A DNA stretch of 64,000 nt from an uncultured Candidatus Peribacteria bacterium. Its GTDB lineage: Bacteria; Patescibacteriota; Gracilibacteria; Absconditabacterales; Absconditicoccaceae. The notes beneath the pieces are model-generated. The model was not told the origin of the DNA, did no database searches, and saw only the letters and a list, made by a program, of their open reading frames with translations. Below, one piece after another: positions 3,028 through 55,465 of the stretch. Within the stretch, counting starts at the first letter, position 1. Each line of letters begins with the position of its first letter. A program made the position numbers and the translations under genes. Location of the stretch: the NCBI GenBank assembly GCA_964563595.1, contig CAZLWR010000001.1, positions 9,857-73,856 on the forward strand. Reading direction: 5' to 3'.

Positions 3028-3285
3028 ATAGGGGTGCAGCTGCGGGGACATACGAAAAATAGATAACTATAAATTGCACAAGAAGGCATTGTATACAATT
3101 AGACTGAAAAATGAAGACGAGTTGAATGAAATGACAAATTTCTCGAGTTATTATTTTCGTGATAAGTCAATTATGAAGTTATATTTATATGATAATATTT
3201 TCTTTTTATACCATTTTTATGGCATCCTTATTTGAAAGCTAGACATGAAAAGTTATGATGTATTTTTGTACCCTCTAAGAATTTG

Positions 3286-15656: not shown

Positions 15657-15937
15657 AGAGCATTAATGATAATAATTAAAGCTAAGACACATCGTGTACG
15701 CTATTAAGAACTATGGTTCATAGATCAAGATAGCACACAGGCTGTCTTGGTGCTATCATTATAATTAAGTATTTTATAATATCAAATAATATTTATTGAC
15801 TTGGAATAACGCAGATATGCTTGAAACCATGAGGGGAAAAATTATGAATTATAACATTTTCGAATTCTTCCCAAATCATATATAACTATATGTATGATAA
15901 TTCTGAAACTATAACATTTATTGTTATGATTGTGTTT

Positions 15938-16011
15938 CGGGAACTAGCTCAGATGGCTAGAGCGCGCGGTTTGGGACCGCGAGGTCGCGAGTTCGAGTCC
16001 CGCGTTCCCGA
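15938..16011 (+). tRNA. tRNA-Pro (anticodon TGG)
   Basis: Cloverleaf drawn by hand: acceptor CGGGAAC/GTTCCCG, anticodon stem CGCGG/CCGCG with loop TTTGGGA, and T-loop TTCGAGT. No CCA is encoded. Confidence 0.85.
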
Positions 16012-16017
16012 AATTAT

Positions 16018-16092
16018 GCCAAGGTAGCTCAGTTGGTAGAGCAGCTCGGCTTGTAGCCGAGTATATCGGTGGTTCGATTCCATCAATTGGTT
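16018..16092 (+). tRNA. atypical tRNA-like gene, anticodon TGT (Thr) if functional
   Basis: The first 27 nt are identical to the neighbouring tRNA-Phe. The anticodon arm is G-CTCGG/CTTGTAG/CCGAG-T (6-bp stem, or a 9-nt loop under standard numbering). The acceptor stem has G1-U72 plus two G-A mismatches at 6-67 and 7-66. Confidence 0.55.
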
Positions 16093-16111
16093 AGATTAGT
16101 TCTTATTTTTT

Positions 16112-16187
16112 GCCAAGGTAGCTCAGTTGGTAGAGCAGAGGCCTGAAAAGCCTTGTGTCGGTGGTTCGATTCCGCTCTTTGGCACCA
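16112..16187 (+). tRNA. tRNA-Phe (anticodon GAA), CCA encoded
   Basis: Acceptor GCCAAGG/CTTTGGC, anticodon loop CTGAAAA, T-loop TTCGATT, and a 3' ACCA. Confidence 0.9.
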
Positions 16188-16225
16188 CTTATTGATAAAT
16201 ACAATTAGATACTTAGATTGACGCA

Positions 16226-16492
16226 ATGGAAAAAATTATTGGATTGTTTGATGAGCTCACAAGAGTTAAAGAGGAAGTCTGACATGGCTTTGAGAAAGAC
16301 TCTAAGGCAGAACAAGTTGCATGGGCGTTGTTATGCGAAGCACAAACACAACATGGTCCATTGAAGATTTGGGCAGATTGTTTTATTGCAGAGAAAGTGT
16401 GGAATCCTACAGTAGTATTGAGTAGAATGGGAGAGGTAATCTTCTCGGTGATCAATCAAAGTGTTGATCCTCAGGATGTATCTATTCAATAA
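16226..16492 (+). CDS. small hypothetical protein (88 aa) embedded in the tRNA cluster
   Basis: ATG to TAA with one in-frame TGA. It fills the gap between tRNA-Phe and tRNA-Ile. The listed antisense ORFs here are shadows. Confidence 0.5.
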
Positions 16493-16510
16493 AGTCAAAA
16501 TACAATATAT

Positions 16511-16587
16511 GGTCATATAGCTCAGTTGGTTAGAGCGCGTCTCTGATAAGGACGAGGTCCATGGTTCAAGTCCATGTATGACCACCA
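16511..16587 (+). tRNA. tRNA-Ile (anticodon GAT), CCA encoded
   Basis: Acceptor GGTCATA/TATGACC, anticodon loop CTGATAA, T-arm CATGG-TTCAAGT-CCATG, and a 3' ACCA. Confidence 0.9.
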
Positions 16588-16747
16588 TTAAAACATTTTA
16601 CTTACTAAGATATAGTGAGTTTTTTTGTAAGTAAAACCATTGCAATTATCAGCAAGATTTCAGAGACTATAGAAAAGGCCCATATAACTATTGACAAAAT
16701 GAGTATAATATTTATCAAAAACTACTTTTATTCCTAATTCACTGCAT

Positions 16748-17065
16748 ATGCAAAATATTCCCGCAAATCATTATGAAGATGGTAAATGAATGCTTAGAAA
16801 ACTTAACTTAAATCCTATTTTGGCACATGCACTATGATGACTTACTTTGGTGTTGGGCGGCATGACTAATATAATTCACCAGGATGGTGTAATGGATGCA
16901 CTGAGAGAAGTTGTTACTGAACATCCAGAACTTAGTTCTCAACTTAATACATGATTATATATGCAGATATTGAATTTTGTTATCATGCTTGCATGAGCAG
17001 GCTTGATATTGTATGCTCCAGAACCAGCCAATAAGGTTAAAGAACCTGCAGAACAAGTGCAATAG
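16748..17065 (+). CDS. small hypothetical membrane protein
   Basis: 105 codons with 5 in-frame TGA and two hydrophobic segments (LTLVLGGM.., LNFVIMLA-G-AGLILY). Confidence 0.5.
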
Positions 17066-17434
17066 CTATTTTCGGATACGAAACTTTAATGTTCATTGTA
17101 TGCTCATATCCTCATCTTCCAGATTCTCATTATTTCGAGCATGTTCAAATCAAGTTTGTTCAATAATGACTCATTCATAAGTTTGCATTGCCGTGAATAG
17201 TGCATTAGCATAAGCTTTTTGTGCTGTTTTTCAAAATCATGTACTAATTTCTTCCGAGTGGAATCTGACGGGGTTTATTCTGTTGGGGATTATTTCTTCG
17301 CCAGTTGTGGCCCATAGCTTTTGTCCTGGTTTGTCCTCTAGATTATGATAGAGAGCACCTCATTGAAATCCTTGAATACATGCTGTATCTGTTACTTTTG
17401 GAATAATTCATCAAAATCTATCTAGTGAACTCAT
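17066..17434 (-). CDS. hypothetical protein
   Basis: A 123-codon minus frame free of TAA/TAG (checked) with about 10 in-frame TGA. Its stop abuts the stop of the convergent gene. Confidence 0.5.
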
Positions 17435-17601
17435 TTGTTTGTCATATTACAATTTAAATATAAGTGGAGTATTCATTATACAAGTAGTCTATTAAGTCAA
17501 TACTATACATATATAATCAAGAAAGGTAAGATGTGTTCCTATGTGCTTTATCTTGGTAAGAAGATACTTGTTTCACTGTCTTTTTTATATTGAATTTAAT
17601 A

Positions 17602-17629: not shown

Positions 17630-17698
17630 ACTTTTGTCATCTTTTGACTTGGTACTATGGGTCTTACCAGCCATACAACATGAAAATCTATTGCCTTT

Positions 17699-18256
17699 AT
17701 GAACAAGAAATTATTTTTCGGAACCAGTGCCGTATTGAGTCTTTTAGCAACAGCCATCTTGTCCTTCCAGGTGTACGAACGTACTCATCTGGATGTGCCC
17801 AATCAGCACGTCATGGAGCTGGATGGAATTGAAGCCGTCGAATCAGCGTTTTCCGCCCAGAAGCCGATCTTTCTGAAGTTCGGTGCGGACTTCTGTCCGC
17901 CATGCCGGGCTATGGAGGCTAATATGAAGGCCGTCGCACCCTGGCACTGCGGGGACGTCATCCTCGCTACGGTTGATATCGTCGAACAACCAGAGCTGGC
18001 TTATGTTCTGGCTGACGAAATCGGGCTGGAACTGAATGCCATTCCGAAGCTCGTGGTGCTTTCGCCGGGCCAGGATTCGGCTTATGCCCCTGCGCTCATT
18101 CAAGGCGGCTTTGTTCGTTCGATTCCGGGCCTGGAATGGGAACTGCTGAAACTGGGGCACTTTTCGCCTCTGTATTATCTCTTATCGGCAGTGGTACTGT
18201 TTGGAGTCGGCATCTTCTGCATGTTCCGCTTCAGAAGCCTATCGGTAGTGGCATAG
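17699..18256 (+). CDS. membrane-anchored thioredoxin-like protein (CPPC active site), compositionally foreign
   Basis: This is an intact 185-aa ORF under any code (no TGA, no CGA), with FGADFCPPCRAME and N- and C-terminal hydrophobic segments. GC-rich third positions (ctg, gcc, ggc, ccg) contrast sharply with the flanks. Confidence 0.8.
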   Translation: MNKKLFFGTSAVLSLLATAILSFQVYERTHLDVPNQHVMELDGIEAVESAFSAQKPIFLKFGADFCPPCRAMEANMKAVAPWHCGDVILATVDIVEQPELAYVLADEIGLELNAIPKLVVLSPGQDSAYAPALIQGGFVRSIPGLEWELLKLGHFSPLYYLLSAVVLFGVGIFCMFRFRSLSVVA

Positions 18257-18484: not shown

Positions 18485-19600
18485 ATGTTTTTCCCAAAAA
18501 AAGAACCATCGAACCCATGAAGAATGCAGGCATGATTTTTGAATTATCCTATTTTTAATATTGAAAATATTTCTTTTGAGGACTTGATTCCTCTGAATGG
18601 ATACGATATATCTCTTAAAAAAACCTTTGATAAATCGGAACATGTTGATTGGTTTATGGATAAATCAGACTTGTTTCTGAAAAGAAAGCTTAAATGATAT
18701 GCATGAAAGTTCAAAACATATGTTATTTCCTCATTGAGCAGTACTAATAAATTTAGTTGATGATATAAAAACTGTCAGTGAATAATCTGAATCTGACAGA
18801 TGGGTTGCGGTAATGTTTCCTTCATGAGCCATCAATGTCCTAGTGAAATTCTTAGAGAGGACAAATATTGAAAACTCGAGTTAAATAAGCTCTGAGAAGA
18901 TTTTAAAAGTGACTTGATCCAAAGATTGAGAAGACTGAAATCTCAAGCAACAAACTTAGACATTGTACTATTTGGTTGAAACATATTCGATGTTTCAGAT
19001 AAAACCAATTATACGGGTTCAAAAAATCACCTCTACTACTATAAAGAATCTTTGAAATTATATGTTCGTTTGATTATTGAAGAAACATGAATTATTCCTA
19101 CAGTTATTGTATGACCCAACAAATTTAGTTGAAGCCAAGCATTTTTATTGGATACAAGCAATAGAAGACTCTATTGTACTAGATTTGATGGAAGTATTAA
19201 TAGAACTAACGAATGATTGATTCTGACCAATGATTGGGATAATGAAATAGAAATATACATTGATTTATTGTGTTGACGCATATCGTATCAGGATTATCAT
19301 GCATTTATGTATTCAAGGGAGATATTTAAATGATTTAAGGAATTAACAAAAGAAGATATACAGTCTAGTATTTTTTCTATCATAAAAAGTGCTCATTTCA
19401 ATGGATTAGATAACAATGAAATCGATTGACTGATAGCCTCCTTAAACTTAGGTGGTGACTTTTTTAAACTTTATACTCCATTACAATACAAAATACCTAT
19501 TGCGGAATATTACGAAATTATACTTCTTCTAGAGAAGTTATGATTGGAGAGGAGCTATTTTGTTTCCTTGATCAAAAAAAAATTAATTAATCAAAAATAG
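18485..19600 (+). CDS. hypothetical protein (371 aa) with about 20 in-frame UGA codons
   Basis: Frame 2 is open from ATG 18485 to TAG 19598..19600, which is invisible in the standard-code track. I recognised no family motif. Confidence 0.6.
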
Positions 19601-26033: not shown

Positions 26034-27350
26034 CTAGTATGATAGAGGATATTTTTCACACAATTTCAAGACCTTGCTGTGTAGTATCTGCTTATCTAGC
26101 ATATTTGTCAAACTGTTATCGGATGATAAGCAAGAGTTGATAATCGCTGCTAGAGTTATCATATCGTCCTCCCTGAGTCACCTTGTGGTGATTGCTGGAG
26201 TTCAGATTCTGATTCCCGAAGGGTCTAATGCGGGCCTTGGGTCGAAAGGTATGAGTTGTTTGTTTACTGATAACCCTATTTCTTCAAGTGCTTTCTCTGC
26301 AGTTTTCCCAGTATGTCAGGTCTGTGTATCCTCGTATTCCAATGTACTGCTTTGTATTTTTTTTGTGACATCCATTACGATGAGATGGTTATCGGTACCT
26401 CCTGTTGCAAGAGTCCAACCAAGCCTAATAAGCTCCTTTGCCAATGTTTGTGTATTTTTTATAATCTGATGACAATATGCTTCTCGGTTTATTTCAGGAT
26501 CGAGTATTTCTTCAAAAGCAGCAGATTTTGCTACTAGCACATGATCAAATGGTCATCATTGTACCCCGGGGAAAACTCATTTATTAATACCTTTTTCAAT
26601 GCTAGGGTTCGTATCTTTTTTATAATATATCAATGCCCCTCTTGGTCATCTTAATGTTTTGTGAGTTGTTGTAGTTATTATATCGAAACCTGCTTCAAAT
26701 GGAGATTCTATACACTTTCACGCAACGATTCCTGCGATATGTGCTATGTCAGCCATAAGATATGCATGGTGATTATGTTCTTTAACGAGTAGCTCATTAA
26801 CTTGTGTAAACTTTTCTCGTTCAATACTTCTGGGATAACTTGAAAATCCTGCGAGAATGAGTTTTGGTTTGTGCTGGATGGCCAATTCTTTCAGATTATT
26901 ATAGTCTATATATCAGTTTGCATCTACTCCATAGTGAATAAAGTTGAAATACTTACCGCTTGCATTGAGTTTATAGCCATGTGTGAGATGTCATCCTGCA
27001 TCAAGTGACATTGCTAAGATGGTATCTCCAGCTTCAAGTAATCCCGTATATACTGCAAGATTAGCTACCGAACCAGAAAGCGGCTGTACATTTACTCATC
27101 GTGCTTCTGAATCCAGATCAAATATCTTGAGTGCTAGTTGTTGCGTATAGAGTTCTAGTTCATCAACTACTTCATTGCCTCCATAATATCTTTTACCTGG
27201 ATAGCCTTCTGAGTACTTATTGGTAAACACATTGGCATAGGAATGAAGCACATTCGGGGATACGTAATTTTCTGATGCAATAAGTTCTAAAGAATCTTGT
27301 TGCCTTAGCAGTTCTCTTTTTAAGAGTGAGATAAGATAGTCTGAAATCAT
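26034..27350 (-). CDS. glyA: serine hydroxymethyltransferase
   Basis: Motifs seen: [48 protein letters not shown], and SGIRI-G-TPAITTR-G-L (Gly=TGA). Confidence 0.93.
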
Positions 27351-37728: not shown

Positions 37729-40700
37729 CTACTTCTTGATACTAAAGTTAATAATGCCTTCTTCTACGTCGCATTCTCCAGTATAATCTGGATTCTCAAT
37801 TGATCATGCGATGGTACCAAGTGTTTCTCTGGCGATGTAATCTCCATATTGAGATAAAATACTTTCAGCTTCAAAGCCAGATATAGTTAAACTAATTCTG
37901 TCGGAAACATCATAGCCAGTATTTTTTCTGGCTTCTTGGATGGATCTGATAAGTTCTCTTACGTATCCTTCCAGTTTTAACTCTGGTGTTATAGTTGTAT
38001 CTAGCATAAGAACTAGATTTCAAGAAGTTATAATATCTCCCGTAAGATCTCCTTTTTCGTATCTCATTTCGTATTCATCTGGCTGGAGTATAATGTCTGA
38101 CACTTTGACTGTATTGTCTGACAAAAGTTCAAACTCCCCGGATTTTGCAAGAGTATTTATTTCTGCAAATCTTGAGCCGAGCTTCTTACCTAACAACTTT
38201 GCATTTGGTATACAGATTCTATTTATTTGATTATCTAGTTTTGCATCTACGATGAGCTCTTTAACGTTTAACTCTTCCAAAATAGTAGTTTCGTATTTTG
38301 GATTGATTTGCTTATTAATTCTGAGTGATTGAAGGGGTTGCTTTACTTTGATTTTAAGCGAACCTCTCAGTGAAAGACCAAGCTCCACAATTGTTTTAGT
38401 TAAATCCATATCTTGTAGTAATGTAGTATCAACCAATGTGTTAATCTTACTCGAGTCAGTTCGATAATCCAAATGTACCGACTCTTTGTTTGTAAGATTT
38501 CTATAGATATACTCTGACAAGAAAGGCATAAAAGGTGCCAGTACTTTGCATAATTCTATAAGAACTACATATAATACATCATAACCAGACATCTTATCAC
38601 TATCATTTTCAGATTTCCAAAATCTGCGTCTATTGCGGCGTATATACCAATTAGTGAGATCATCCATAAAACTAAATAATGGGGCGGTTGCTTTTTGAAT
38701 ATTATAGGCTTCCATTTGTTTATTTACTTCCGTGATGAGTTCTGCTGTTTTTCAGATTATTCGTTTATCAAGATCGTTTTTAAATTCATAACCTACGAAA
38801 TCACTAATACTGTGCTTAGTTGGAGCGAACTTGTCTATATTTGCATAGGTAGTGAAAAATGAGAAGCTATTCCACAAAGGAAGATTCACTTTTCTGATTA
38901 TTTCTTTTCGTCCTTCTTCATAAAAATTCATATCACCTCAAACGAGTATAGGACTAGATGCAAAGTACATCCTGAGGGAGTCAGAACCATGTGTCTTCAT
39001 ACTTTCTTCCGGATCTGGATAGTTACCATAGGATTTGGACATTTTACGACCATCATTTCCTGCGAGCACACCCGTACAAACAACATTGGTAAAAGCAGGG
39101 TTATCAAAGAGCATGACTCACAATGCATGCATAAAGAAAAATCGACATCTCACTTGACCTAGATACTCTGCAACATAATCTGCAGGAAAGGATTGTTCAA
39201 ACTTTTCTTTATTTTCAAATGGATAATGTACTTGAGCATAAGGCATAGATCCGGATTCGAGCCATGGATCCAATACTTGCGTTATTCTCGTAAACTTTTC
39301 ACCTTCACGTATTCACCAAATTGCATCAATATAAGGACGATGAAGATCAAATTCTTTATTCTCTAAAGTATTTCGGTATTTCTCTTTTCAATTTAAAACT
39401 CTCTTTTCGAGTATTTTACTTCCTGTTTGATCCAATGCAAATATATCCTCTCTGCTGCCGCATACTATTATTTTCCCGCTTTCTGCTACCCAAACTGGCA
39501 TTGGAGTTGCCCAATATCTAGTACGACTAATACATCGGTCAGGAGCAGATTCCATGGATTTTAAAAATCTACCATGCTTGAGATGCTCTGGTACTCGATT
39601 TACTTTTTCATTTTCAGCGAACAATCTTTCTTTGATTGATTTGATGTCAATAAACCAGTTGTCTTGCGTTTTGTAGATTAATGGTACTCCTGTTCTTGGG
39701 CACATAGCAACCGAGTGAGTAATAGACTCTTTCTTGAAAAGTAATCACTTCTCTTTGAGTTTGTCCATCACAAGATCATTCGCATCGCGGTAGTATACTC
39801 CTTTCATATCTGCTATTTCCTCGGTATAGTTCCCTTGTTCGTCCAGGGCAGCAGATTGAGTTAAGTCATGTCTTTTTCCTGTTTGAAAGTCATCTTCTCC
39901 AAATTCAGGGGAGGTATGTACGATACCTGTTCCATCGCTGTCAGTCACATAATCAGCAAGGTATACTTTGTGATCATTAGTGCTTTGTCAGACATAGTAA
40001 TCAAATGGTGCTTGATAACTTAATCACTGAAGTTCGGCCCCTTTAGATGTATATATAATCACATATTGAGAAGGATCTTTATAAAACTTAGAAATAAGGT
40101 TTTCTGCTAGTATGAAATACTCCTGTAAGACTAGATCAAATAGCTGTAGGTATACTATATCTTTGTTCACTACGAGTGCCATATTTGCTGGTATAGTTCG
40201 TGGTGTCGTAGTTCGTGCTAAGAAGGAAAATGGGTACTTATCTCAATTACCTTGCAACGCTCAATGTTCTACTATTTGTTTGTAGTGGTAAAGATCTTTG
40301 AAGGTTCTTATCTCTTCTTCACTATCTATGATAGCATTATTTATGGTGAAATTTCGTCATAATTCGTTTTCACTTGTTCATATATATGTATACCCATATG
40401 CAGTATGCTTATCTGACTCTAATAACTGAATCTCTCAATGTATTATCTCCGCTTCATAAAACTCTAGATATGCTTTGTGTGAATTTCTAATATCTTTGTG
40501 GGCACACACTCTTTTTCAAACCTTTACGCTCACTCATAATTCTTCCTGTAACTCTCTTTCTAGGGCTTGAGTCGCAGTTTCTCATAAATCTACTTTACCG
40601 CCGGGAAACTGCCAATTTCCATGTTTTTGATTATAGACCGATAGTATTCCACCTTTACTATCTTTGATTATAGCCTGTGCATAGCATATAAATCCGTCTT

Positions 40701-41394
40701 GCGTGGCTTCATATTGATTTCAATCTGCTAAGGCAATGTCTTTTCAGATTAGTGGAAATTTCACAGTGATAGCCGGATCAGCAATATCTGCATAACTATT
40801 ATCCAATGCTACTTCATAGTTACTAATTGGCGTATTGAGTTTGGTAGAGTATAATGATACTCTCTTGCCTTCATAAATCATACCCTTATCTCGTAGAGAC
40901 TTGAATACTCGCATAACAGATTCCATGTAATCATTGTCCATGGTTTTGTAGGCGTTTTTGAAGTCCACCCATCTTCCGATATGATCTACATATCGCTCCC
41001 ATTGGTCACTGACATTTTTGGTGTAATCATAACATGCTTCAATAAACTCTTTAATACCATGTGCTTCAATTTCTTTGTTAGACTTATAGCCGAGTTTATC
41101 CTGTATTTTTTGTTCTACATAAATTCCATGGCAATCCCATCCTCGTACTCTTTCTATTCTTTTCCCTTTTTGCGTCCAGAATCTTGTTACGATATCCTTT
41201 ACTACGCTGCTCAATAGGCTTCCATAATGTGGTAAACCAGTAATGAATGGTGGTCCATCGTAAAATCTATAGGCATTCTCTTCGGATCTTGTTTCAATAG
41301 ACTTTTCGAAAATTTGATTATCTTTCCAATATTGTAAGATTTCTTCTTCTAACTGGAAGAAATTTGGAGAACTAGGAAGTTTTGGGAAAGACAT
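37729..41394 (-). CDS. ileS: isoleucyl-tRNA synthetase (type 2 / eukaryote-like) carrying an internal Nudix-domain insertion
   Basis: 1,221 aa in one frame. Motifs seen: [37 protein letters not shown] (Trp=CGA at 40213..40215 and 40198..40200), [17 protein letters not shown] (CGA 39535..39537), and GRKMSKS. Confidence 0.92.
40260..40735 (-). other. Nudix hydrolase domain inserted in IleRS between the ..ITVKFPLI.. strand and WTTTPWT
   Basis: The canonical Nudix box GX5EX7REUXEEXGU is read in frame: G-KVDL(G)[15 protein letters not shown](G)V at complement(40531..40599). It is preceded by [31 protein letters not shown]. Confidence 0.8.
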
Positions 41395-41579
41395 CGCGAA
41401 TGGACCTAACAGAGTAAAATGTAAAATTTATATAATAATATTGAAATGTATTACAACGCTTTGTAAAGTAAAATTCACTTAACTACTGCTTTCTAGTTGA
41501 TAAAACTGCACAAAAGGGTAAAAGAAAACGAATAAAAACTTGCTTTTGGATTTCATTAATTCCTACTTGTTATACTCTG

Positions 41580-44500
41580 ATGTTTCAACGAAGTAAAAAA
41601 AAGATTATACTCTTTATAGTACTTATTGTTTTCAGTGTTGATACAGTACTATCTGGTACTATTTTTTGATGGAATAAAGCACGAGCAGCAGAAACAAACT
41701 TTACTGATATTATCAGCGTTTTCATTGATAAAAATATTGCTGCCAGTGCAGGAAGTGACCTTGATTGGTTTACGAAACAGTATTTGTGAAGAAATTACGA
41801 CAATGCTCAGGTAATGGTATTTCAAATTGACCCATCGGGAGTCTCTCCAGCGGATATGGCTAAGATCAATCAAAATCTCTATTTGGAATGAAAAAAATGA
41901 GTTCCTAGTAGGTTGATCGGGACCGTTCTTATTGGTGATTTGAAATTACCGGTGGTCAATAAAGACTGATTTGTTTTTTCAACTATCTATCCGTTAGTAG
42001 ACTTTGAAAAACCTAAATATTATTACGATAAGAATTCAGATTATTTTCTTTATCAGTCCGAAGGCAATAGCCAACCTGAAATACGGCATAGTGTGATTAA
42101 CTTTGCGAATGATACGAGTAAGTACAAAATATATCTAGATAAACTGAAACAGTACGCTGCGGATCCGCAGTCGTGGGTGAAACAAGGTGTATGGTATGAT
42201 GATATCATCCATCAAAAACAAACTCTCAACGCTGATAATATTTCTAAATACGTTAACAATGCTGTGTTTAGCGAAGACGTAATGTACAATAGATATACCA
42301 ACTTGATGGTTGATATCTTCCAGGCCTTGCACAATAGTGGAGTAGTAGATACTTTGGGTGACTATGATGATCAGGTTATTAATAATTTGGAAGATCCTTA
42401 TTACAATGATCCAGAATTTCAGGAAGTGAAAGATCAATATAAAGGTCAGATAGAAAAGTTTTGGAATTTGATAAAATCACTAAAATCATTGGTAGGTTCG
42501 AATAATACCGACTCTTCAGATCCAGAGCCTTCAAATTCTGCCTTGGGCACATTGCCCAATAGTAAGTTTATCAATACCTTATTTATTCAAAAGGTGGTTG
42601 ACGGATTTATGAAAGATTATGTAGAGTTGTATGGGACCCTCTATTTTGATACCAAAGAGAAAAGGTTGCAGCTTGGTGGAAGATATGTTGCTGGACAAAC
42701 AGGTACTGCAGTAGATGATCATATTACGATGACTAGTAGATGGGATGAAGTCAGTAAGCAATTGTTAGCTGATGCGAATACGAAGCTGGAAAAAGCACTT
42801 GATGATAAAATTGAGCAGGAGGGATATAGTATGAATGTCTTGGTTCCGACTAGAGTGGATATCAACGGTTGTAACAATGTAGAAACAAAAGACTATGATG
42901 CGAAGAAATCGTATGAGGTGTACTATTTTGGTAGGCCGGCTGAGGAAATTGATAACGCTGAGGATTTTGGTATTTACCGTGGTACCTTCAATAATATTAG
43001 ATCACTTGTAAAGCTTGATGGTTTCGACTATACCAGTTGGATGGATGCCCAAGAGAATCAATCAATTGGTGCAACCAGGGGAGAGAATGCAAGGGAAGTG
43101 GAAGCACATAGAGGCTATGATTTCTCATTGATAGAATACGATCAACAGGAATTTGAAAGGGTAAAGAGTATTATGCCTTTTAGTAAACATAAGAAAAAAA
43201 GAAAAAACATTGATAAGTTTATCAACTATTACCGAGCAGGATATACGCCACTCAATATTGACCCTAACAGTGAAGATGTGAGACTGAACCAAACAAGAAT
43301 GGACTATACACAGTTGTGGAATCCTTGGAAGAATAGAACATTGGGCGGACCTGTATTTGATATAGCTTGAAGTAGAATCACTACTCCTGATAGGAAAATT
43401 AATTTCAGTTATGGATCGGATGATGATGAAGACGAAGATGATGGAGATGAGGATACGCCGGATATTGTTACTAAGTCTTATTCAGGTTATTCTGATAGTT
43501 ATTTAGGAGCAGACTTTTTTGGAACTACCTTGCAGGTTGCCAGAAATAATGGTAAGTGGATAAAAGTTCAGAAAAGAAAAGTAAGAAAAAATGGTAAGCC
43601 TAAGAAAAATCGAGAGGATGTTAGACTATTTGCTTTGGGTGGATTATCTAGCAATGATGGTTTATTCCTCAAAAATCCTAATGATGACGGCTATATTACG
43701 ATAAATAGTTGTGCGAGCAATAACCGAAATCGTTATTTTAATTCAGTTGATAGTAGATATTTCCATAAATCACCGACTTTAGATGAGCTCTACGGTAAGT
43801 TCACCAATCTCAATAAGGTTAAAATGGATATCAGCTTCGGCTGTGACTCTCCTGATAATGGCAATTATGCTGAGGGTCAGCAGTGCCAAGGAATAGAGTT
43901 TAGACGAAGTGATTTCTTACCGGGCTTTAATGATAATTCCGCCTCTCCCTGGTATTTATCTAAGGATGATTATTTTATAACCTGAGGCAAGATTTATTTC
44001 AATAGCACTGCGAAGTTTTACTTTGCTGGTCAAGATATTGATTTGAGTAACGTAATAGGTGAACTTACTGGTGGAAAAATAAAATTTCAATATGATGGTA
44101 GAAATATAGCACTAACGTATGCGAATGCTACTTTTGATTGCGAAGAGCTGGAGACCGACGTAGAAGAAGGTCTTGCTTGTGTGGGTTTGAGTTTCGAGAT
44201 AGATCATAGGAAGCACTTTATAGATTATAAATACTTTGACTATGATACTACTGGTCAGGTTATTTCATTTTATCCCTGAGCAAAAATTACTGTCATGAGC
44301 AAGGATTATCCCTTGTGAGGCATGGTGGTCCAAGTCAATGGTGATAAGTGAGAGTTCTCTGGCAAACAACTTCAAATAGGTGGTATGAATGAATTCACCC
44401 TCGAGAGACCGGTTGATTCTCCTAGGTATGTCAATTTCCAGGGAATAGGAGGGGATAAGTTGACTTGGGTCTATCCGAATATGTGGAAAGTGGCGGTCTA

Positions 44501-47500
44501 TAAAGAAGTAGATGGTAAAAGAGTACTTAAAACCATAGAGGAGATACAGGATGCTTTAAAACAATATCTGCGTGATAAAGTAAAAGATTACAATAATCAG
44601 CTTCAAGACCAAAGAAATAAGAGATTTGATTACTATAATGGTAACGAGTGAGGAGCTGCAAGAAGAAACCGAATTGATAAATTTGATAATTATGATACGA
44701 GTATTTCGCCTTTAGTGCATGAAGATAATACACAGCTTAATCTGAGATCTTACAAGTTGTTACCTGAAAATTTCTTGATTGATGGCTTGGCGACGACACG
44801 AGAAGGAGAAGCAATCAGCAGCAACGATATGCTTAAGGTTATTGCTCAGCAGCTCTATCATCAAAATGTGATGCGGTTGCAACTGCCAATTGACACCAGT
44901 AAAAAAGTCTTGGATGAAGTGAGTTTGATCCAATCGTTTGCCGATATTAATCATAAATCCAGGGAACTTTATTCCGAATACTTAACTGAGCAACCAAAAG
45001 ATGCTTTTGAGAATGTTCGTGCATATGATTTAGATTTACCTTATTATAATCTTAGTGGTTACGAAGCTGGATATATCAATAGTGATGGAGCGGACTATGT
45101 GCAGTTTCAAACAGTACCGCCACTAGTGAAGCTTATCCAAAAACAAAAAGCAAAAGATACTCCTCCAAAACCAAAGACGGCTGAAGATCTAGACACCAGC
45201 AGATGTGCGAATCTTATACCTGCAAGTTATGTGGTGTCCCTATCAAAACGACCTGCGGCATTTAAGTGCTGGCTTTCTGATATCACTTCTTCAAAACTTT
45301 TTGATGTAAAGATTTCTTTTGCTGGCTCTGCAAATGGTGTCTTTTGATTGGGTAGTGATGAAAACAGTTCTGGACGACTGGAAGATGCTTGGCAGCAAGG
45401 TACTGATCAGTTTAAAACCGAGCGGAAAAACTATTCTCAAGGACGAAGGGCTACGGTGAAATGAGAAGATACGGGTATCGCTCCTGATGAAAGAAGAGAA
45501 TTGGCGAAACAATTAGATAATCTGATCATCAAACCTACTAGTTTTTCTCCTGCTTTGACTGCGTGAGTGAGACTAGCGATTTCCACCAAAGAGGATTTGT
45601 GATCTTATACTATTCAGATTTCTAGTACGGGTGCCAACTGTTTGAAATATGTAAATGGGTCTAACTTGTGCCAATCACCGCAATCTTTACAAATAGCATG
45701 ACTGTATTCCAGCAATTATGATTTTACTTTCACAAAGTTGTTTGAAGGGGTTGGCGATATGAATATCCAAGTTAAAATTTGTAAATCTAAATGTGTTTAT
45801 AAAAACATAGTAATTGCTGTCCAGCCATCTGAAATTAGTAAATTAAAGTTTGTACACCCTATGGGTGATCAGATCTATCCGGTGGCGAGAGGTGTGCAAC
45901 TGCCTATGATGACCAATGCTTTTGATGCATATGGTAATAGCATTGGAACTACCTTATATGATTTTATTGTAAAGACTTCTCATAAAGGGTGACTCATCTA
46001 TGATAATGAACTTACTCAACAATTTCAAATCAGTTCATTCACCGATGCAGGGTTTCTACTAGATACGATTTCTGTGAATGGAAATAAAGAGACAATAACT
46101 ATTGCTCCAAATCCTTCTTTTGTCGCTCTCAATCCTTCATTACCAAAACAAGAACTTACGTTAGATATCGTGGATCCGAATGTGAGTATCATTACTAGTT
46201 CTACCGTAGTTCAGTTACCAGAAAGTAGTAGCGATTTAGAAAAGACAAGTGATGGCGTCTCTTACACAGATATTTCTAAACTGACTAAGATAAGAGTGGT
46301 AGTTAATAATGGTCAAAAGTTATATGCTGTTGTCTCAGCAAAGTCTCTATGAGGTAAGTTTATTGCTGGTATCAAAGGTACAAAAAAAATAGCTAAACCG
46401 AACAATCAATATGCTACTGTGGAGACATTCATTCCCGTAGAGGAGGTGCTTTCTACTGGAGGTTTTGTAGAGTTTTATCTATATCCCACTATGAAAGCAG
46501 GAGAAGATAGCCTCCAGATTCAAGTTGGTCAATCAAGTAAAAATATTACCCTTGAGGTAAAACCGGCAAGTCCCAAAAAGACCAGCATCAATATTGATAC
46601 GGATGTAATGGATTTGCAATGAAAGGTTGATGGTACTATAGCAGTCACTGATATCTGGTGAAATATATTACCAACTTCTGTGAATGTATTATTATGAGCA
46701 TATGGCAATATTACTGTTGACGGAGTAAATGGTTCTGGCAGTGTTATTGCTATTGCTTGAGAAAAGCAAATTACTGTTCGCCCGGTATATCCCTGAGGAC
46801 AGGGTTACTTATTTGTTACTATACAATGAGTCCCATTTGATCAACAATTTCCTGATTATCGTAGTATACTTGTGCAAAATAGAGCACGACCTATAGAAGA
46901 TATAAATGTAGCTTACCTCAATCTTTACGGCTCAGATCGAGCGAACCAAGTTGATAAGCAAACAAATAAGATAATCTGACCAGCAGTTCTTACGGACAGT
47001 AATAAAACTTTATCGCTTACTACTCAGTATGGAGATCCATCTCAAATCTACAAAACATTGTTCGCAGTAGATAAGAAATGACAGATCAAACAATGATGAA
47101 CAGAGAGTATTGAACTCGCTTTGTCTAATGAACAACTTGGATATCATACTGAACAGTATGGGTTCTTACCTATCGGTCAAGCCAGTAGTTTTGGTATGCA
47201 AGTAGTTTCAAGTTTGGATGGAGGGCTTGCCGGAAATGCTTGGGCTGTTAAGGTTTGAGAAATCAGTTCTACCATACAATCAATTGTGGTTGTAGGCAAG
47301 CAGTTGCGTGTCAATGATCAGATTATTATAGATTTGCAAAATGCTGTATGGGATACCAAGGTAAGTATAAAGTATGCAGGAAATATAGGAAACTATACCA
47401 AGCGAAATATATATTATGGTAATGACATTGTTGCTCAGTTTATTCAAACATATGCTTTGGATACTACCTATACTGATATGCGAAGATCTCTTGTGGATCC

Positions 47501-50500
47501 TACAAGGTATACAGTGGCGGATGTTTTGGTATCTCAATACCATGATCAAGGAATCGGTATACTGGATAATGCTGCTAACTTGAGCGACGAAGATAAAAGC
47601 GTTCCTAGTATCCAACATAGTGAGGATAGTAAATATAATATTGGATTTGGTGACACCTTTAAACCGCTTACACAGTTTGCTCAAGGTAAATCAGTGGGTG
47701 AGTCTTCTGTCGCCTTTGCAAGTGAGTTTGTTCTCAATCTGTGAGATCCGACCTACCGTATTTATGAAAAAAATAAACTAGTAGATCATACAAATTATGA
47801 TGGCTGACTTGGTGTTACTGCTTTCGCTGATCCCGATAAAATTATCCAACAGGTTATGGACATAAATCGAGATAAGCAGGGCGATAGGGATTTATTGGTA
47901 GTATACGCAGACGGTTCGGTAAGGCTATTGATATCAAAAGGTAACAAACAATATGTTAAAGTATGAGACTTGGCATATATACAAGACGGCATCCAAAAAC
48001 TCTATGTAGGTGATGGTGATGGTGACGGTTATCAGGATCTCTTTGTGCATACGATGGCCAATCAGTTGAGATTCTATAAAAATTATGAGTGAGAAAGAAT
48101 TGATGTAGATGGTTATCCTATTTGTCTAGACATAGAGGGTGGGGATAAAAATCTAAATGGTGTCTGGCAATGGTTTCTTACAGATCCAAACAATGATAAA
48201 GTTACCGATATTGTTATAAATGATAAAAATAATCAGATCAAATTATTCTTGGGATGAGGATGATCTACTTTATTTAATTTATGATTTGGTTGAGGAAATT
48301 ATATATCCAAAGATAAGTATGCTTGCGACCCGGATTGGAAATCCAGACAGGAAGGTAAAATTGCTACTATCAAGTCATTCGCCCCAAAGCTTGATGGCAC
48401 GCAAATCACTGACGAATCTTTGGTGCATCGAAATGGTCTTAGCACGTCAGACACAGGAACTATTAATCCTAATGTGGATTCTGCAGATGACCTGGAAGAT
48501 CCTGATAGGATTAATGTCGACATACAATTGGGTAATTCTAAAAAACCAAAAGATGTTATAAATCTCGTGAAGAGTCAGCTTATGTCTACTTTTAATCCGC
48601 AAACATGGATTACGGAATATACAAATTCATTAGATAACACCATTACTCTTGATGCTGCCTATAAGCCAGTATATGAAACAATTCCTGGCGAGACCGTTTA
48701 CAAACAATTGCAGTCGTTACTTACCACCGATAAATTGGCTTCCTATAAAACCTTTACTGACTTAAATGGTGGTAAATTAGAAGATGGCGATATAGTGAAA
48801 ATAAATATTACTATCCAATGAAAGTGAGCAGCTAAGGCAACTTATATTGAGAAACTCTCTGGTCCGCGGGAAATTCCCGTCAGTGGTACCCAGCAGGTAT
48901 GATTTTTCCAAGGTAACTTGAATTCAGATTATACTTTCATTTTGCAGCCTTGACCGAGTTATGTGTTTATGATTGATAATATAAACGTATGAGCAACAAC
49001 AAACTTTGGTTACCATGTAGTATATAAATCACAACAAATAGTAACTATTCAGCATGGAGAGTGATTTACTGATGTCAATGGAGTAGGTGGATCTATTGGT
49101 AAAAACCTTATACCTCATGCTTATGCCCAATCGGATAATACGCCGCCTTGGCTTGAGATAACACCTTTGGACGGATGTGCCAAGTTTAAATGGAAGATTA
49201 CTACTCCCAATATATGACCCATTTTATCAAATTGGTTTGTAGAACAAAAGATTGACCTAGAACAACAGATAAAAGATAAACAGAAACAAGACGAAGAGAA
49301 ATATACCGAAGGCATGAGTGATACGTTTTCTGATCTGGTAAGTGATACAAAGGATGAAATAAATAGTGAGCTAAAAGATACGTATCTGAGAGAATCCCGG
49401 AGACAAAAAGGTTTATTGAAAGACGACCCCGCACTCAAAGCTATTGAACAATTTGCTTATACTACTGAAGCACTCAGCAATCTCAGTATCAATAATAATC
49501 TGAAAATAGGAGGTTTTGGTGCGGATATTGATCAGTTGTTGGATAATAAAATTGGTGAGCTTACAAAGGGACTTTGTGAAGGATTTAAAGTTGGGCAAAA
49601 AAACTGTTCAGGTATACCTATTTTGAGTAGTCTTCCGCGAAATATGGCTTTCTTGTCGCCTGGAGATATGCAGGTTATGGGATGTAAAATTTGGAAAGAT
49701 AAGGGTATACCATTGTTGCGGTTCCCCGCAACCTTACAAACCCCAGTCGGTCCGGTGCCTTTCATAGGACCTATTGGCCAAAAATGACCGGGAGATGGAT
49801 TCTATCGATTTGGTGGATGAACTTATACGTCTTTGATCAGAATGTATGTCTCACCCACTTTAACAGCAAAGCTGGGAATTGGTATCTGTTTCGGTCCTTA
49901 TACAGCCGGTATTAAATTACCAAAACCCTTTAAGGATATTATGGGCAATTGTATCGTATTTGCAGTAGATCCAGGACTTGGTAAATGTGAGCAGGTGAAT
50001 GAATGATGACCAAGTGACTATAGTTCTTATGTTATCAATAAGGAAACAAAAGAACTAGATGATACCAATACTTGTAATGATGACATCACTGTTAAGAATT
50101 CTCCACTGAAGTTAGTAGAGACCTCAGTAAATACTGCTGATAACTGGCTTGATTCTGTTCAATGAGAGCATGGGTTGGTAATAAAACTTGGATGACACGC
50201 CAACCTCACCAACTACAATAGTATTGCTCTCAGCGATTTTGTTACTAAGGTAAGACTTGAGGGTGGCAATCCTTTAGATTTACAGATAAAGGGAGCAAAT
50301 GATAAAGGTTTAGTGAGCTGTCTTATCAATCAGTTCGCTGATAACCAGATTAGATATATCATCAATAATCTGACTAGTATGGATATCAATATTGTCTTAC
50401 CGGATTTGAGAGGCTTGGGAAGACAAATAGTTGGAGTAGCAAATGTATTCAATAACAATGCTTGGCAAGAAAAGCAAAGCAACGAAGCGTTTTCTGATTA

Positions 50501-53500
50501 TGCTTCTCAATATGAAAAAACTCTCAAACATAATACTGGTAGTCTCAAACAATTTGTAACAGCATGACAGAGTAAACAAAAACTTACCAAAAGACTCAAT
50601 ACGGTTCTATCAAATCCTTTTGAGAAATTAGCATTATTTTTCGCTGATAGTGAATTAGTAAGGATCAGTAGTAGAGATGTGTTGGTAGAAATACCTTGGA
50701 TATATACGGAGGACATAGTTACTCTCAGATGAGTATATAGAGCTTGGCGAGAGAGAAATCAGCCGGTCCTCAAAGAACGACAGGACTTTGCTATTGATTT
50801 TGTGAAACAATGTGAGGCGAAAACGGACGATTTCGAGAGACAAAATTGTATGATAAGAGCCAACAAAATTATACAACTCAATAATCAACTAGGCCAATTT
50901 GAAAAATCTATCAGAAGGAATCTTCAGGTATTGGATGAATATGGTGAATTTCCAAGTAAGGTATATGACCTATTGCATGGTTATGACACTTATATTTATG
51001 ATCTATTTAATTTTGCTTATGGTACTATTGATGCAGTAACGAGCTGGCTATCGAAGCTTGCAAGAGGATTTGAGGCTTGGGTAGACTTTATTGTATCCTT
51101 GATAGGTATTCTTAAAACCCGGCAGGTATTGATTGATTTTTCAGTCAACTGGAAAGAGAAATGCAGCAAATGTACGGTAGATAATTATTCGGCTTATAGT
51201 TGCTCCTTTAGTAAGTTTTGTCCCAAATTACCGGTATTTAATATACCTCCATTCAAAATACCAGATATTACAATTGATCTGAGCAATATAGATTTACGTA
51301 CTGATATTGTATTACCGAAGTTTAGGTTCCAGCCTAAAAGAATCTGATTATTTGATAATATTAAACAATTTGGTTTGCCTGATGTGCCGTATCCTACGCA
51401 AATTGGATGGCTAGATAACGAAATCAACCTTAAGCTACCTTCTATCCCGCTGATACCATCACCGCCAGATTTGGATGCAATTAGCTTACCAAGCTTTATT
51501 CCTCAAATCAAATTCAAAGGTCCTACACTGCCACCAGCACCGAAGATTCCTAAGATAGCCCCAGAACTTGGCTTAGCAATTGATATCGCTGATTTCATTG
51601 GAAGAATATATTGTTTGGTAAAGTGAGGTATTGGATTGGTCGGAGAAGCAGGGCTCAAGTCAAGGATTGAACAAATGACTCAAAGAACTTGGGCAGTAGA
51701 ACCATTCGATAGTCTCAAGTTACTTATACCAAATGCTCCTTTGCAAACTCTCAATCTCTTCAAACCCCAAAGGGACGAGGGAGGCAGTTTAGATTTCAAA
51801 CTGGAAGCCTTTGCGGATGTTAAAATGTACTTTGATGGAGTGTATGGATTATTTGATGGAATAGCCGAAAGTATCAATACTCAAACAAGGAAGGTGCAAA
51901 GAACGAGTACTGAGGTACCTGCTTTACAGACAGTAGGTGAATTTATAGACAAGGCTAGTTCAACATTCATTGATGCTACTGATAAAGCAACAAACGAGAG
52001 TATTCAGACCAATATTAATATTAACCCTTTTGGTTACGTAGAAACATCAGATTATCATTCAATCAATAGTAAGATCAAATGAGATCTTGCTTATTTCACT
52101 GAAAAAGATGATCAGCCATTTGCACAGGGAAGAAAATTGCTTGCTGCTGATATTGTTAGATCCTATGATTTAGATACCACTGTGAGAATAAATACAAAAG
52201 GTATGGATGAAATAAAAACTCAAGTTAGTGAGGTATTAAATCAAGAGTTGAAAGAAAATAGTGAAGTGAAGAATTGGATACAACAGGATTGGGACGGTTG
52301 GCTTGATCACATCATAAGTACACAGTATGTAAGCGACGATAAAACACTGTATTCCTTAAAAACAAACCTTCTGGATATAGATCAACAGACTTTGGACTAT
52401 GTTGGTAATTACGATATCGCTAAAGAGTATGTTGCTACCGAAAAAACAGTGATAGATGGGTATGTCAACGGTCTTGCAAATTCGGATTATGAAACTTTAG
52501 GTATGCAAAAATCAGATTATGATAGATCAGCAGAATATTTGAATACTCTGAAACAGAACGTTGATCTGGCACGAAACAATGTAAATGCTCCCAAACAAGA
52601 AATTGATTCACAAATGCCAGCGAATGTGGATGTTAATTGATGAGAATGAAAGCAACAAATCAATTGTACCTTGTGTAATAAAGAACCTGGTGATCCTGTG
52701 CTACTTTCTCAACAAGGCGGTAACACTAATTCACCTACGAGCAATACCTTTGCACTTGGAGGAGTAGATGATCCAACTAGATATCTCAATGGATACTTTG
52801 TGAAAGGAGATGACGATAATTACCACAATGTTATTACCAATATGGATAAGTGAGAACAACTTAGTAAGAAGAGTTTCGAGAAGGATATTACCAATGATGG
52901 GTTGCATGAAGTTGTCTTGCGGGATGAACACAATGTGTATATCAAATATGCAGATAAAATTTCAAATACTTCTAACCCAAAACAAGGGAAGCATGTTGCA
53001 AACGTTGTTACTATCGTAATAGATTCTGTTGCTGATATGGAGAGCCAAGTAGATGCTTACGGCTATTATGGCAGTCGAGCTGGTAAGACAAAAATTCGAT
53101 CTCAGGAGCGGATGCCTAAGGAATGGGAAGTAGCATGACAAGCTTATCAGTCTATGACTTATACGGTTTCCAATGAAATTGAGTCTGCGGGTGACGGCGT
53201 AGTGGGATATGCAGTGAGATATACTGATACTATTACGAAGACGCTTAGTAAAGATGCCGATTATGATTATATGATTATTTTGGATACCGCATTGCAGGGC
53301 AAACCACTTAGCGATATTGATATTGATGGCGTCCATTTGCAAGCCGATGAGGTGCAGATTATATATGTTGATCCGGGTCAGCAAAGTATCAGTGCTGTTT
53401 TGAGCAATTTACCTAGGAGATGGTACTATAGTCAGATCACTAAGTTATCGAGTAAACAACAGGTAAGTAAATTATTCGGATTTATTCCTTTCGGATCAAA

Positions 53501-54569
53501 AGATACTCTGACAAGAATTTATAAATCCTCTCCGCGATCCAATAATGAAACTGCGGGCATGCAGATCATTGCTGATACGAGTGCTCCTTACGCTGATGTG
53601 AAATTGGTTCGTACTCAAAAACCACTTGTTGTTGCTCAAGGAGATAGTATGTTTGGCACGATAAAAACGTATTACACGCTTAGCGGTAGTTGGTATGATG
53701 ACAGTAAGGTAATTAAAAATCGAGTATACAGCGGTAACGTACTTATTGCATCCGGTGATCATGATCTTATATTCGTATCTGGCATCTATTCTGATAAGCC
53801 AGTTAAACTTACTTACCAATTGGTGGGACAGGATAGTGCTGGTAACATAGGGCAGAAAACCGTAGAAGTAAATCTATGATTGCCAAAGATTACCGTCGAT
53901 AATGTTGATACAAATACTATATGACAATCTGATGTACTCTCGAGTTTGAACACTGATATAGATAAGTGAACTGTGCAATTTGTGAGGGTGAGAAATGGAG
54001 TAGAATCTGTTTTGGAATCCGTATTTGGTAAGAAGAAATTATTTGATACCATCACAGATCAATTAGTAGTTACTTGAGGTAAATTTGGGTTTAAACAAGA
54101 TATAGGCTTTTACGATGCAGATGGTAAGTATCTCAATGTAAGCCTAACTCCTGCTGGTCAGATAGTAAATACTAATCCTGCAATAAAAGTTACTGTGGAT
54201 TTCGTGGATAATGTTCCTAAGATTGTATTATCAAAAGATAATCAGGAATTATATCGTATCTACCTTAAACCAAAAGCATTTGATAGCGCTAAAGGTATCA
54301 CTATTTTAAATGGGGCATACGACACGTTGAGAATGCCAGTAAGTACGCCTGCGCTTGGTCAGTTTGCCGGTGGTGTATGTATCAAACCAAAGAACGGTGT
54401 ATGTGAGATTATGATTGCTCCGTCAGGCTATATATTTATTTCTAAACCATATCATAGATTATATAGAGGATACTATAAGTTTGAATCTGGGAAAGTAGTC
54501 TATGGCATACAAAAAGGTAAAGAAACGGTAGCTGAAGTAAGAGTAGAAGTAGAACCAGTCAAAAACTAA
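41580..54569 (+). CDS. giant signal-anchored surface protein (4,329 aa), putative adhesin / host-interaction protein
   Basis: All 20-plus standard-code fragments between 42093 and 54569 are in frame 0. I read every inter-fragment gap and found only TGA, never TAA/TAG. The start is ATG 41580 (an upstream in-frame TAA lies at 41469) and the N-terminus is MFQ-W-SKKKIILFIVLIVFSVDTVLSG. It ends at TAA 54567..54569. Confidence 0.85.
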
Positions 54570-54601: not shown

Positions 54602-55465
54602 ATGATAGTACTTTATTCTAAAGATATTATTGCTCAAAAAAAACTCTTTCTACAAGAGCATTTTGCTACTCAACAATATAAAAGTAAGTACCTAGCTATA
54701 TTGTATTTCGGTCATGACCCTGTTATATCCGTATACGTAAGGAACAAAATCAAATTTGGATATGATGTTGGATTGGAAGCTAGGTTGTTTGGGCAGGAAA
54801 AGTATTATACGCTTGAAGATGCATATGAGTGCATAGAGTCTTTAAATAAGGATAAACACTGCGTAGGAATCATTATCCAATTGCCTCTTCCTTCTTATCT
54901 GCAAGATTATCAACAGTCTTTGTGTAATGCTATTGCTATTGGAAAAGATGTAGATGCTATGACTAGTGCTATGATGGGTAAGATAGCAATGGGTTCCCCA
55001 GATGCAATATATCCTGCGGCGGTATGAGCCAGTATACAATTATTAGATTTTTATAATCTGAATGCCATAAGGGGTAAGCAGATAAGTATTATCGGGCAGA
55101 GTAATTTGGTAGGGAAACCATTTGCTTTGTATTGCATTAATCAGTGAGCCCAGGTTCATAGTTTTGGTGTAGACGGTGATCCTGAAGTTATGAAAGAAGT
55201 TTGTAGAAATTCAGATTATATTATATCAGCAACCGGAGTTATTGAATTGGTTACTAAAGAGTATGTAAGAAACGATAAAACCCAGATTATCATCGATATT
55301 GGTTATGGTATCAAAGATGGTAAAGCTTTTGGTGACGTTGCATTTGAACAGGTACAAAACTTGGTCCATGCTATTACACCCGTACCTGGTGGGATATGAC
55401 CTATGTGTGTATGTCAGTTGTTTGAGAACATACTATTACTTACAAAGGATCTTTCTGAGAGATAA
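54602..55465 (+). CDS. folD: bifunctional methylenetetrahydrofolate dehydrogenase/cyclohydrolase
   Basis: Motifs seen: YVRNKIKFGYDVG, GIIIQLPLP, IIGQSNLVGKP, and ITPVPGGI-G-PM. Confidence 0.88.

Follow-up and report, generated by a model that had tools for sequence, protein, structure and literature searches.

An exported giant protein of a code-25 Absconditabacterales genome belongs to a lineage-wide family with undescribed conserved modules

Members of the Absconditabacteria and Gracilibacteria live as obligate epibionts or predators and have genomes of about 1 Mb, and to our knowledge it is unknown how they hold on to their hosts and feed from them. The subject of this work is a gene of 12,990 nt, here called the giant gene, located at positions 41580–54569 (+ strand) of a 64,000-nucleotide stretch of an uncultured Candidatus Peribacteria bacterium (contig CAZLWR010000001.1 of assembly GCA_964563595.1), which was analyzed at its full length and is called the window below. 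The closest described systems are the giant membrane or surface proteins of Vampirococcus (PMC8080830) and Strigamonas (PMC13059738), for which a role in host recognition has been proposed without experiments. The ten longest proteins of Vampirococcus lugosii measure 1,392–4,163 amino acids (aa), and the longest of them, VAMP_16_20, is listed as a 'hypothetical protein' (PMC8080830). The window protein, with 4,329 residues, resembles VAMP_16_20 (4,163 aa) and the surface proteins of >1,500 aa known from Strigamonas methylophilicida in lineage, in the use of genetic code 25 and in the proposed role, and further in its similar size, its N-terminal export signal and its integrin-type domains; the likeness to VAMP_16_20 is drawn from the published description. 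Both papers treat the giants as a heterogeneous class without a family definition and do not describe the three-module architecture with its core that is presented here, and no definition of the family or of the core module was found in the literature searched. Giant surface proteins of Absconditabacteria are already known; what is new here is a sharply defined family with undescribed conserved modules.

The giant gene forms a single frame from an ATG at 41580 to a TAA at 54567–54569, with 64 in-frame TGA codons and no internal TAA or TAG among its 4,329 sense codons. With TAA or TAG expected at 5.1% of codons from the base composition of the window, the probability of such a run is about 10^-98.5. 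Translation code 11 breaks the gene into 20 in-frame pieces of at least 60 aa, the longest of 425 aa; such a breakup of a frame this improbable by chance makes the giant gene invisible to code-11 gene calling. A preliminary description of the locus had reported one uninterrupted 12,990-nt open reading frame (ORF) hidden under the standard code. Its coordinates proved exact and its other descriptive statements on the frame were accurate; its figure of 70–80 in-frame TGA codons was an overestimate, and its count of more than twenty ORF fragments came close to the 20 counted here.

TGA is present in frame in every sizeable ORF of the window. By alignment, it is read as Gly, as in translation table 25, which Absconditabacteria and Gracilibacteria use, and this was seen independently in two genes. 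In the SHMT gene of the window (26034–27350, − strand), TGA stands opposite conserved Gly residues of PDB entry 3pgy at no fewer than six positions, including those in the GGH, GPRG and QGGP motifs. Inside the giant gene, which was compared with its closest relative L005 (JBAYVQ010000006.1, an Absconditabacterales metagenome-assembled genome, MAG), 38 of 45 window TGA codons face either TGA (15) or GGN (23), and in the reverse comparison just one of the 48 L005 TGA codons faces TGG. In total, TGA accounts for 64 of the 340 glycine codons of the giant gene. Unlike most of the window, the gene displays a sustained positive GC skew (0.10–0.21) together with a positive AT skew, its coding strand being purine-rich. 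Four antisense ORFs inside it (e.g., 51194–51970) were rejected as shadow ORFs, being broken by TAA or TAG in most of the relatives examined; the 258-aa one among them is interrupted in this way in three of four relatives. Another ORF of the window (18485–19600, + strand; 371 codons), with no Pfam match, carries 20 in-frame TGA codons, an unusually high density (5.4% of its codons vs. 1.5% in the giant gene).

A homology search with the giant protein retrieved 25 proteins (P0001–P0025). Four of them (P0001 and P0005–P0007; 4,319–4,371 aa) share 39–53% identity with the query over 99–100% of its length, and P0002–P0004 share 52–54% in the best local alignment. The seven closest proteins (P0001–P0007) measure about 4,250–4,370 aa; one example is hypothetical protein PK048_00105, from a Candidatus Absconditabacterales MAG. 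Nine further homologues of 3,887–5,879 aa show 24–29% identity. An alignment of 17 sequences was colinear end to end. The full-length colinear homologues (~3,900–5,900 aa, 24–54% identity), found in Absconditabacterales and Gracilibacteria, argue against the production of separate smaller proteins from internal starts, an alternative named in the preliminary description. Local BLAST and hidden Markov models (HMMs) detected three modules in 25 of 25 homologues, always in the same order: first the N-terminal alpha/beta module, then the FG-GAP module and last the Cys/Pro-rich core. The window protein has the same colinear layout: the export signal and an N-module with the motif LIGDxPLPVV ... PEIxH, the core at residues ~2650–3470 and the FG-GAP module between them.

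The core HMM, built from the family, matched all 25 homologues at E ≤ 1e-50. An exhaustive profile search of the core against 1.84 billion cluster representatives yielded 816 proteins at E ≤ 1e-3, with 387 at E ≤ 1e-30. Among the best 150 core matches, most measured 3,500–6,000 aa and had the core some two-thirds of the way into the protein; the shorter matches resembled fragments. No homologue of the core or of the giant protein outside this lineage was present among the named search results. When one genome per GTDB species was scanned for the core, 22 assemblies were found, all of them MAGs and with one locus each, labelled as Absconditabacterales, Absconditabacteria, Absconditicoccaceae, Gracilibacteria, 'Peribacteria' or Patescibacteria. 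The scan relied on two peptide patterns specific to the family, one of them the four-Cys cluster, and would miss divergent paralogues; within that limit the gene is apparently single-copy in the genomes scanned. Judged by these searches, the giant protein is a member of a large, sharply defined, lineage-wide family with undescribed conserved modules.

The family is poorly visible in public databases. The closest homologues (P0001–P0007) and L005 have the same modules as the giant protein, all of them are unannotated, and many are mistranslated or stored as code-11 fragments. P0001, P0003–P0007 and others show W where the window has TGA-encoded Gly, having been translated with another code. A search with the core only gave 16 fragments of 182–568 aa (P0169–P0184) located on long contigs, the typical product of code-11 calling on orthologues. 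The two kinds of copy are consistent with code-4 or code-11 calling on code-25 genomes. Such mistranslated and fragmented copies add noise to alignments and structure prediction.

Selection was assessed in a codon alignment of the C-terminal 2,679 codons of the giant gene with L005 (75% amino-acid identity). Over these codons, the proportion of nonsynonymous differences (pN) was 0.16 and that of synonymous differences (pS) 0.77, the synonymous sites being saturated, and the same low-pN pattern recurred in every 300-codon segment. In the core segment 3141–3440, pN was just 0.06. Some segments reached 0.24–0.25, four times the core value, and residues 1641–1940 (pN 0.24) belong to the more variable part of the protein. 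By this comparison, strong purifying selection acts on the C-terminal 2,679 codons, and we regard the giant gene as a real, single, functional unit of an Absconditabacterales genome using code 25, as read from its sequence and those of its relatives.

The N-terminus of the giant protein reads MFQRSKKKIILFIVLIVFSVDTVLSG. Residues 1–36 (41580–41687, + strand) make up the predicted export signal: a basic n-region (RSKKK), a hydrophobic stretch at residues 8–26, which is the sole strongly hydrophobic segment of the whole protein (Kyte-Doolittle 2.36), and a small-x-small site, ARA|AE, at residues 34–36. The n-region, the h-region and the small-x-small site expected of a type I signal peptide are thus all present, as judged by eye, with a long h-region of ~19–23 residues. 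Each of the homologue N-termini that were read has a comparable site in the corresponding position (VYA|E, AYA|Q, VRA|A, ASA|Q, AFA|E, ANA|A). The conserved AxA-type site after the hydrophobic stretch favors a cleaved Sec signal over an anchor, and the N-terminus is probably a cleavable Sec signal peptide, cleavage itself being deduced from the site. The basic stretch and hydrophobic export signal of the preliminary description were confirmed in place, and its term "signal-anchored" became doubtful in view of the AxA-type site in every aligned homologue read. As to retention signals, the giant protein has no lipobox, its first Cys being residue 431, no LPXTG anywhere, no hydrophobic C-terminal segment, and no Pfam match to SLH (PF00395) in the whole or segmented sequence.

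About 98% of the giant protein has no match in Pfam, NCBIfam or PDB. Pfam searches with the whole protein and nine overlapping segments gave a single match, to FG-GAP_3 at residues 2099–2156 (E 7.6e-6), a borderline one that lies exactly at the cut-off of 26.9 bits, and NCBIfam gave none on the orthologues P0002 and P0008. The view that the protein has no recognisable enzymatic motif and mostly no nameable family, put forward in the preliminary description, was therefore upheld. Conservation peaks at residues ~100–250, 950–1000, 2000–2250, 2650–2800, 2900–2950 and 3150–3400. With HMMs of eight segments, no second significant copy of any of them was found in the giant protein.

In the N-terminal half, the alpha/beta domain (residues ~42–200; 41703–42179, + strand, as are all features of the gene) is a conservation peak present in 25 of 25 homologues. 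It is followed by a mostly helical extension of the N-module (~201–600; 42180–43379), for which the structure model is of low confidence and which the N-module HMM detects in the 16 closer homologues. A conserved middle block of no known family (~930–1250; 44367–45329) contains the invariant C1209 and C1230 and shows BLAST matches to P0015 and P0016. The beta-rich region at ~1300–1990 (45477–47549), with conserved DxxGN motifs (D1449/N1453 and D1691/N1695), probably consists of Ig-like beta-sandwich domains, a weak assignment: the HMM of residues 1650–1765 matches P0020 at 1976–2079 (independent E-value, iE, 2e-4), overlapping its Pfam Glyco_hydro2_C5 Ig-like domain. The FG-GAP/VCBS-type module (~2000–2260; 47577–48359), conserved in all distant homologues, includes the FG-GAP_3 match, a Ca-binding-type loop DGDGDGYQD at 2145 and a looser DxDxDG-type loop at 2094, both from the motif scan. 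Next comes a conserved beta-sandwich-like domain (~2370–2500; 48687–49079) with the motif LEDGDxVKI, recognized through weak HMM matches. It may be DUF11/CARDB-like: its HMM matches P0017 at 2983–3112 (iE 1e-4) and, weakly, P0020 at 2671–2797, overlapping a Pfam DUF11 domain.

The core begins with the Gly/Pro-rich sub-module A (~2650–2810; 49527–50009), which belongs to no known family and has the invariant elements RxYxSPTLT, C2770 and GNC(2791)IV. Sub-module B (~3043–3179; 50706–51116) is composed of three long helices, modelled in P0002 with a predicted local distance difference test score (pLDDT) of 80–90. A four-Cys cluster, C3195-x2-C3198...C3208...C3214 (CSKCTVDNYSAYSCSFSKFC; 51162–51221), is invariant in the 17-sequence alignment and leads into a proline-rich extended segment (~3215–3330; 51222–51569) with many invariant Pro residues, e.g., LPPAPxIPKIxPE. 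A helix and loop, CxVKxGxGLVGE...IEQxTQR (~3335–3370; 51582–51689), are also conserved in the alignment. The C-terminal beta-rich region (~3700–4329; 52677–54566) has no sorting signal, and HMMs of residues 4100–4215 match the C-terminal regions of P0018 and P0020 (iE 1e-4). The giant protein contains 34 Cys residues, many of them invariant. Elsewhere in the window, at 17657–18256 (+ strand), a 199-aa thioredoxin-fold protein is encoded (Pfam Thioredoxin, E 7.7e-8; CPPC motif). Each of its ends has a hydrophobic segment nearby; it is possibly extracytoplasmic and could matter for the formation of disulfides in exported proteins rich in Cys, the giant protein among them.

Structural comparisons added little to the assignment of these modules. 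Profile searches of PDB sequences with the core and the N-module returned only coiled-coil or helical noise, and phmmer searches of the FG-GAP and C-terminal segments against PDB sequences gave no match. AlphaFold2 models were built on the orthologue P0002, not on the window protein. The core model had a mean pLDDT of 51.8, the three helices being its sole confident part, and Foldseek found for it only generic helical bundles, with no neighbor at E < 0.1. In the N-terminal model (mean pLDDT 51.9), the alpha/beta domain at 40–195 was confident, with pLDDT ~75–90. Its invariant residues include P124, Y137, P138, D141, E167 and H170, within the motif LIGD(I/L)xLPVV...YPxVDF...PEIxH.

The N-domain model gave no Foldseek match at E ≤ 0.001; caspase-3 (E 0.026) and gingipain RgpB fell in the range E 0.026–0.11, and the best neighbor was sub-domain A of RgpB (family C25; probability 0.96–0.98, root-mean-square deviation 2.9 Å, 157 columns). 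An hhalign comparison of the N-module with the verified RgpB sequence was not significant (E 0.089), with the register being as expected (VFVEKS...LIGD vs. VIVAKKY...LLVGD). The giant protein has no Pfam C25 match, and a His-Cys dyad was not found: no Cys precedes residue 431 and the N-module has no conserved Cys column. The aligned part of RgpB, sub-domain A, presumably does not hold the catalytic dyad either. A clan CD cysteine peptidase (gingipain C25/caspase) identity of the N-module was rejected because the similarity was not significant and the Cys was lacking. The module is possibly a non-catalytic alpha/beta domain with a fold like that of gingipain sub-domain A, in which the invariant D141, E167 and H170 could form a binding or metal site.

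Other known protein groups share only parts of this architecture. Four SLH-bearing Gracilibacteria giants among the homologues (P0017, P0018, P0020 and P0023; 'S-layer homology domain-containing protein') have the N-module, FG-GAP and core in the same order. They carry SLH, TSP3, Big_1/Invasin_D3, PKD and DUF11 domains, none of which Pfam detects in the giant protein, and they are just 20–28% identical to it over 4–18% of its length; Pfam SLH was found in P0020 and P0023. With integrin-alpha/VCBS FG-GAP propellers (PF13517), the protein shares one FG-GAP_3 repeat and a DxDxDG-type loop, but only ~60 of its 4,329 residues match and the region has no PDB sequence match; the one Pfam repeat and two Ca-type loops found compare with the several repeats that a seven-bladed closure would need. 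Giant adhesins of the Bap/SiiE/LapA/RTX type consist of tandem near-identical Ig- or cadherin-like repeats, whereas the eight segment HMMs revealed no such repeats here.

The reading that we prefer, with a probability of roughly 0.6, is that of an exported, single-copy, lineage-wide, multi-domain cell-surface protein that probably supports host contact; its surface location, fixation in the envelope and host contact are all inferred. The 4,329-residue product would enter the Sec pathway via its N-terminal signal, probably cleaved, and would act beyond the cytoplasmic membrane as a surface protein of great length, with many domains and no repeats. From the N-terminus, its predicted modules would be the alpha/beta domain, beta-sandwich spacers, the integrin-alpha-like FG-GAP module of Ca-binding type, a further beta-sandwich, the core (Gly/Pro-rich block, three-helix bundle, invariant four-Cys cluster and proline-rich stretch) and the beta-rich C-terminus. 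The contrast between invariant, non-repetitive modules and faster-evolving beta-rich stretches (pN 0.06 vs. 0.24–0.25) suggests a division of labor. The invariant modules may do a host-independent job, e.g., assembly or fixation in the cell's own envelope, and the faster-evolving stretches together with the propeller may contact the host cell. The SLH, Big_1/Invasin_D3, PKD, TSP3 and DUF11 domains of the distant members are typical of cell surfaces and were counted in favor of a surface protein. A metaproteome has yielded VCBS-repeat proteins of Gracilibacteria (PMC11452946). Host attachment, which the preliminary description had suggested, is plausible but unproven, and it fits how the literature treats such giants (PMC8080830, PMC13059738).

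Several points weigh against the host-contact reading. The deep conservation, the apparent single copy and the lack of repeats set the protein apart from typical host-specific adhesins, which evolve fast, and the single-copy statement itself comes from a pattern-limited scan that is blind to divergent paralogues. No retention signal was found (SLH, LPXTG, lipobox or a second transmembrane segment), so the protein could be released from the cell. Both P0002 models were poor (mean pLDDT ~52), and the expression, localisation and binding of the protein are putative.

A serious, if rather unlikely, rival is a mainly structural envelope protein, S-layer-like or a fibre scaffold, that would maintain the integrity or shape of its own cell and have no specific part in host recognition. 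Given the deep single-copy conservation and the absence of repeats, a conserved envelope component fits at least as well as a host-specific adhesin. The one locus per genome in a lineage-wide family, the conserved housekeeping neighborhood of the gene (see below), the strong purifying selection, above all on the core, and the presence of SLH domains, which bind cell-wall polymers, in distant relatives all agree with a scaffold, and the conspicuous fibrous surface of Vampirococcus has been attributed to giant proteins (PMC8080830). What speaks against a scaffold is that Pfam detects no SLH or other wall-binding domain in the giant protein itself, that ligand binding is the typical task of FG-GAP and Ig-like modules, and that certain segments have a pN four times that of the core, as would be expected if they faced a changing partner. 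The Cys/Pro-rich core with its helical bundle might also act as a contact-dependent feeding or penetration device that inserts into or bridges the prey envelope for uptake of cytoplasm. Such a role is improbable. The core is the most conserved part of the protein, with invariant Cys and Pro, it falls into no known family, and the lineage to which it is confined consists, as far as members have been cultured or observed, of epibiotic predators (PMC8080830). Long helical bundles beside hydrophobic segments are found in membrane-active proteins. Against it, the core has no transmembrane-grade segment (the best 19-residue window scores 1.5, with charged residues inside) and no structural neighbor with a pore or fusion fold, the model is of low confidence, and the idea is entirely speculative, with nothing specific in its support. 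We are similarly skeptical of the broader proposal that the core and N-module form an undescribed extracellular machine by which code-25 Patescibacteria bridge or breach the prey envelope in epibiotic predation, the gene then being a key determinant of parasitism.

An artefact, i.e., a misassembly, a pseudogene or a chain of smaller genes that seem continuous when TGA is ignored, would account for the 20 fragments seen under code 11 and for database orthologues that are often stored as 182–568-aa fragments. It is effectively refuted by the demonstration that TGA encodes Gly, by a frame open for 4,329 codons (P ~1e-98), by colinear proteins of 3,900–5,900 aa from independent assemblies, by purifying selection over the aligned 2,679 codons and by the breaks in the antisense ORFs of relatives.

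Irrespective of the exact role, the giant gene would occupy roughly 1% of a ~1-Mb genome. With one locus in each of 22 genomes, purifying selection and nearly all of its length outside known families, it is a concrete candidate for host-interaction tests in the few cultured relatives. Two of its conserved modules, the N-terminal alpha/beta domain with the invariant D141, E167 and H170 and the core rich in Cys and Pro, offer well-defined targets for structural work. The locus also illustrates clearly how annotation under the standard code hides such genes or splits them into fragments.

The genomic context of the giant gene is that of housekeeping genes. A gene for an IleRS-type class I synthetase (37729–41394, − strand) precedes it on the other strand, and 32 bases past the giant gene FolD is encoded (54602–55465, + strand), followed by an alpha/beta hydrolase and GlyRS. 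The intergenic stretch that separates the giant gene from the divergent IleRS gene (41395–41579, + strand), whose sequence was read, presumably holds the promoter. Ahead of the ATG it shows no GGAGG of Shine-Dalgarno type, the promoter scan stayed at chance level (55 sites vs. 56.6 expected), with no promoter assigned, and so did the terminator scan. The loci of P0001 and P0002 have the same arrangement: a Trp/Tyr-type synthetase ... ileS, giant gene, folD, CutA1 ... GlyRS. The stand-alone position between ileS and folD noted in the preliminary description was thus right, and the arrangement itself is conserved in the closest relatives. The order ileS, giant gene, folD kept in the closest orthologues points to a vertically inherited resident of a housekeeping region rather than an island; this layout was not found around the 40% identical P0007.

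Additional features were seen around these loci. The IleRS-type synthetase of the window has a NUDIX insert in its catalytic domain at residues ~241–335 (PF00293, E 1.1e-11; also Nudt16-like), for which the IleRS-type gene beside P0002 gave a faint match and that beside P0001 none. Near the P0001 orthologue, a 282-aa neighbor (locus L025, 22772–23620, − strand) shows a faint SLH match, and a gene weakly resembling T4SS_pilin lies a few kb downstream of the giant orthologue.

The remaining observations concern other parts of the window. A tRNA cluster is located at 15937–16587 (Pro-TGG, Thr-TGT, Phe-GAA and, 320 nt further on, Ile-GAT). The adjacent stretch at 16600–17560, ~1 kb without an ORF under code 11, was considered as an RNA gene (16.6–17.56 kb) and rejected: nothing in Rfam matched it above noise, a folding signal was likewise absent, and under code 25 it contains two small ORFs instead (16748–17065, + strand, and 17066–17434, − strand). 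At the edge of the window (1–3066, − strand), and running off it, a partial AcrB/RND-type transporter of >1,022 aa is encoded (Pfam ACR_tran, E 8e-122), which deserves attention in a bacterium presumed to have no outer membrane. RND proteins have been noted in groundwater Gracilibacteria (PMC11452946).

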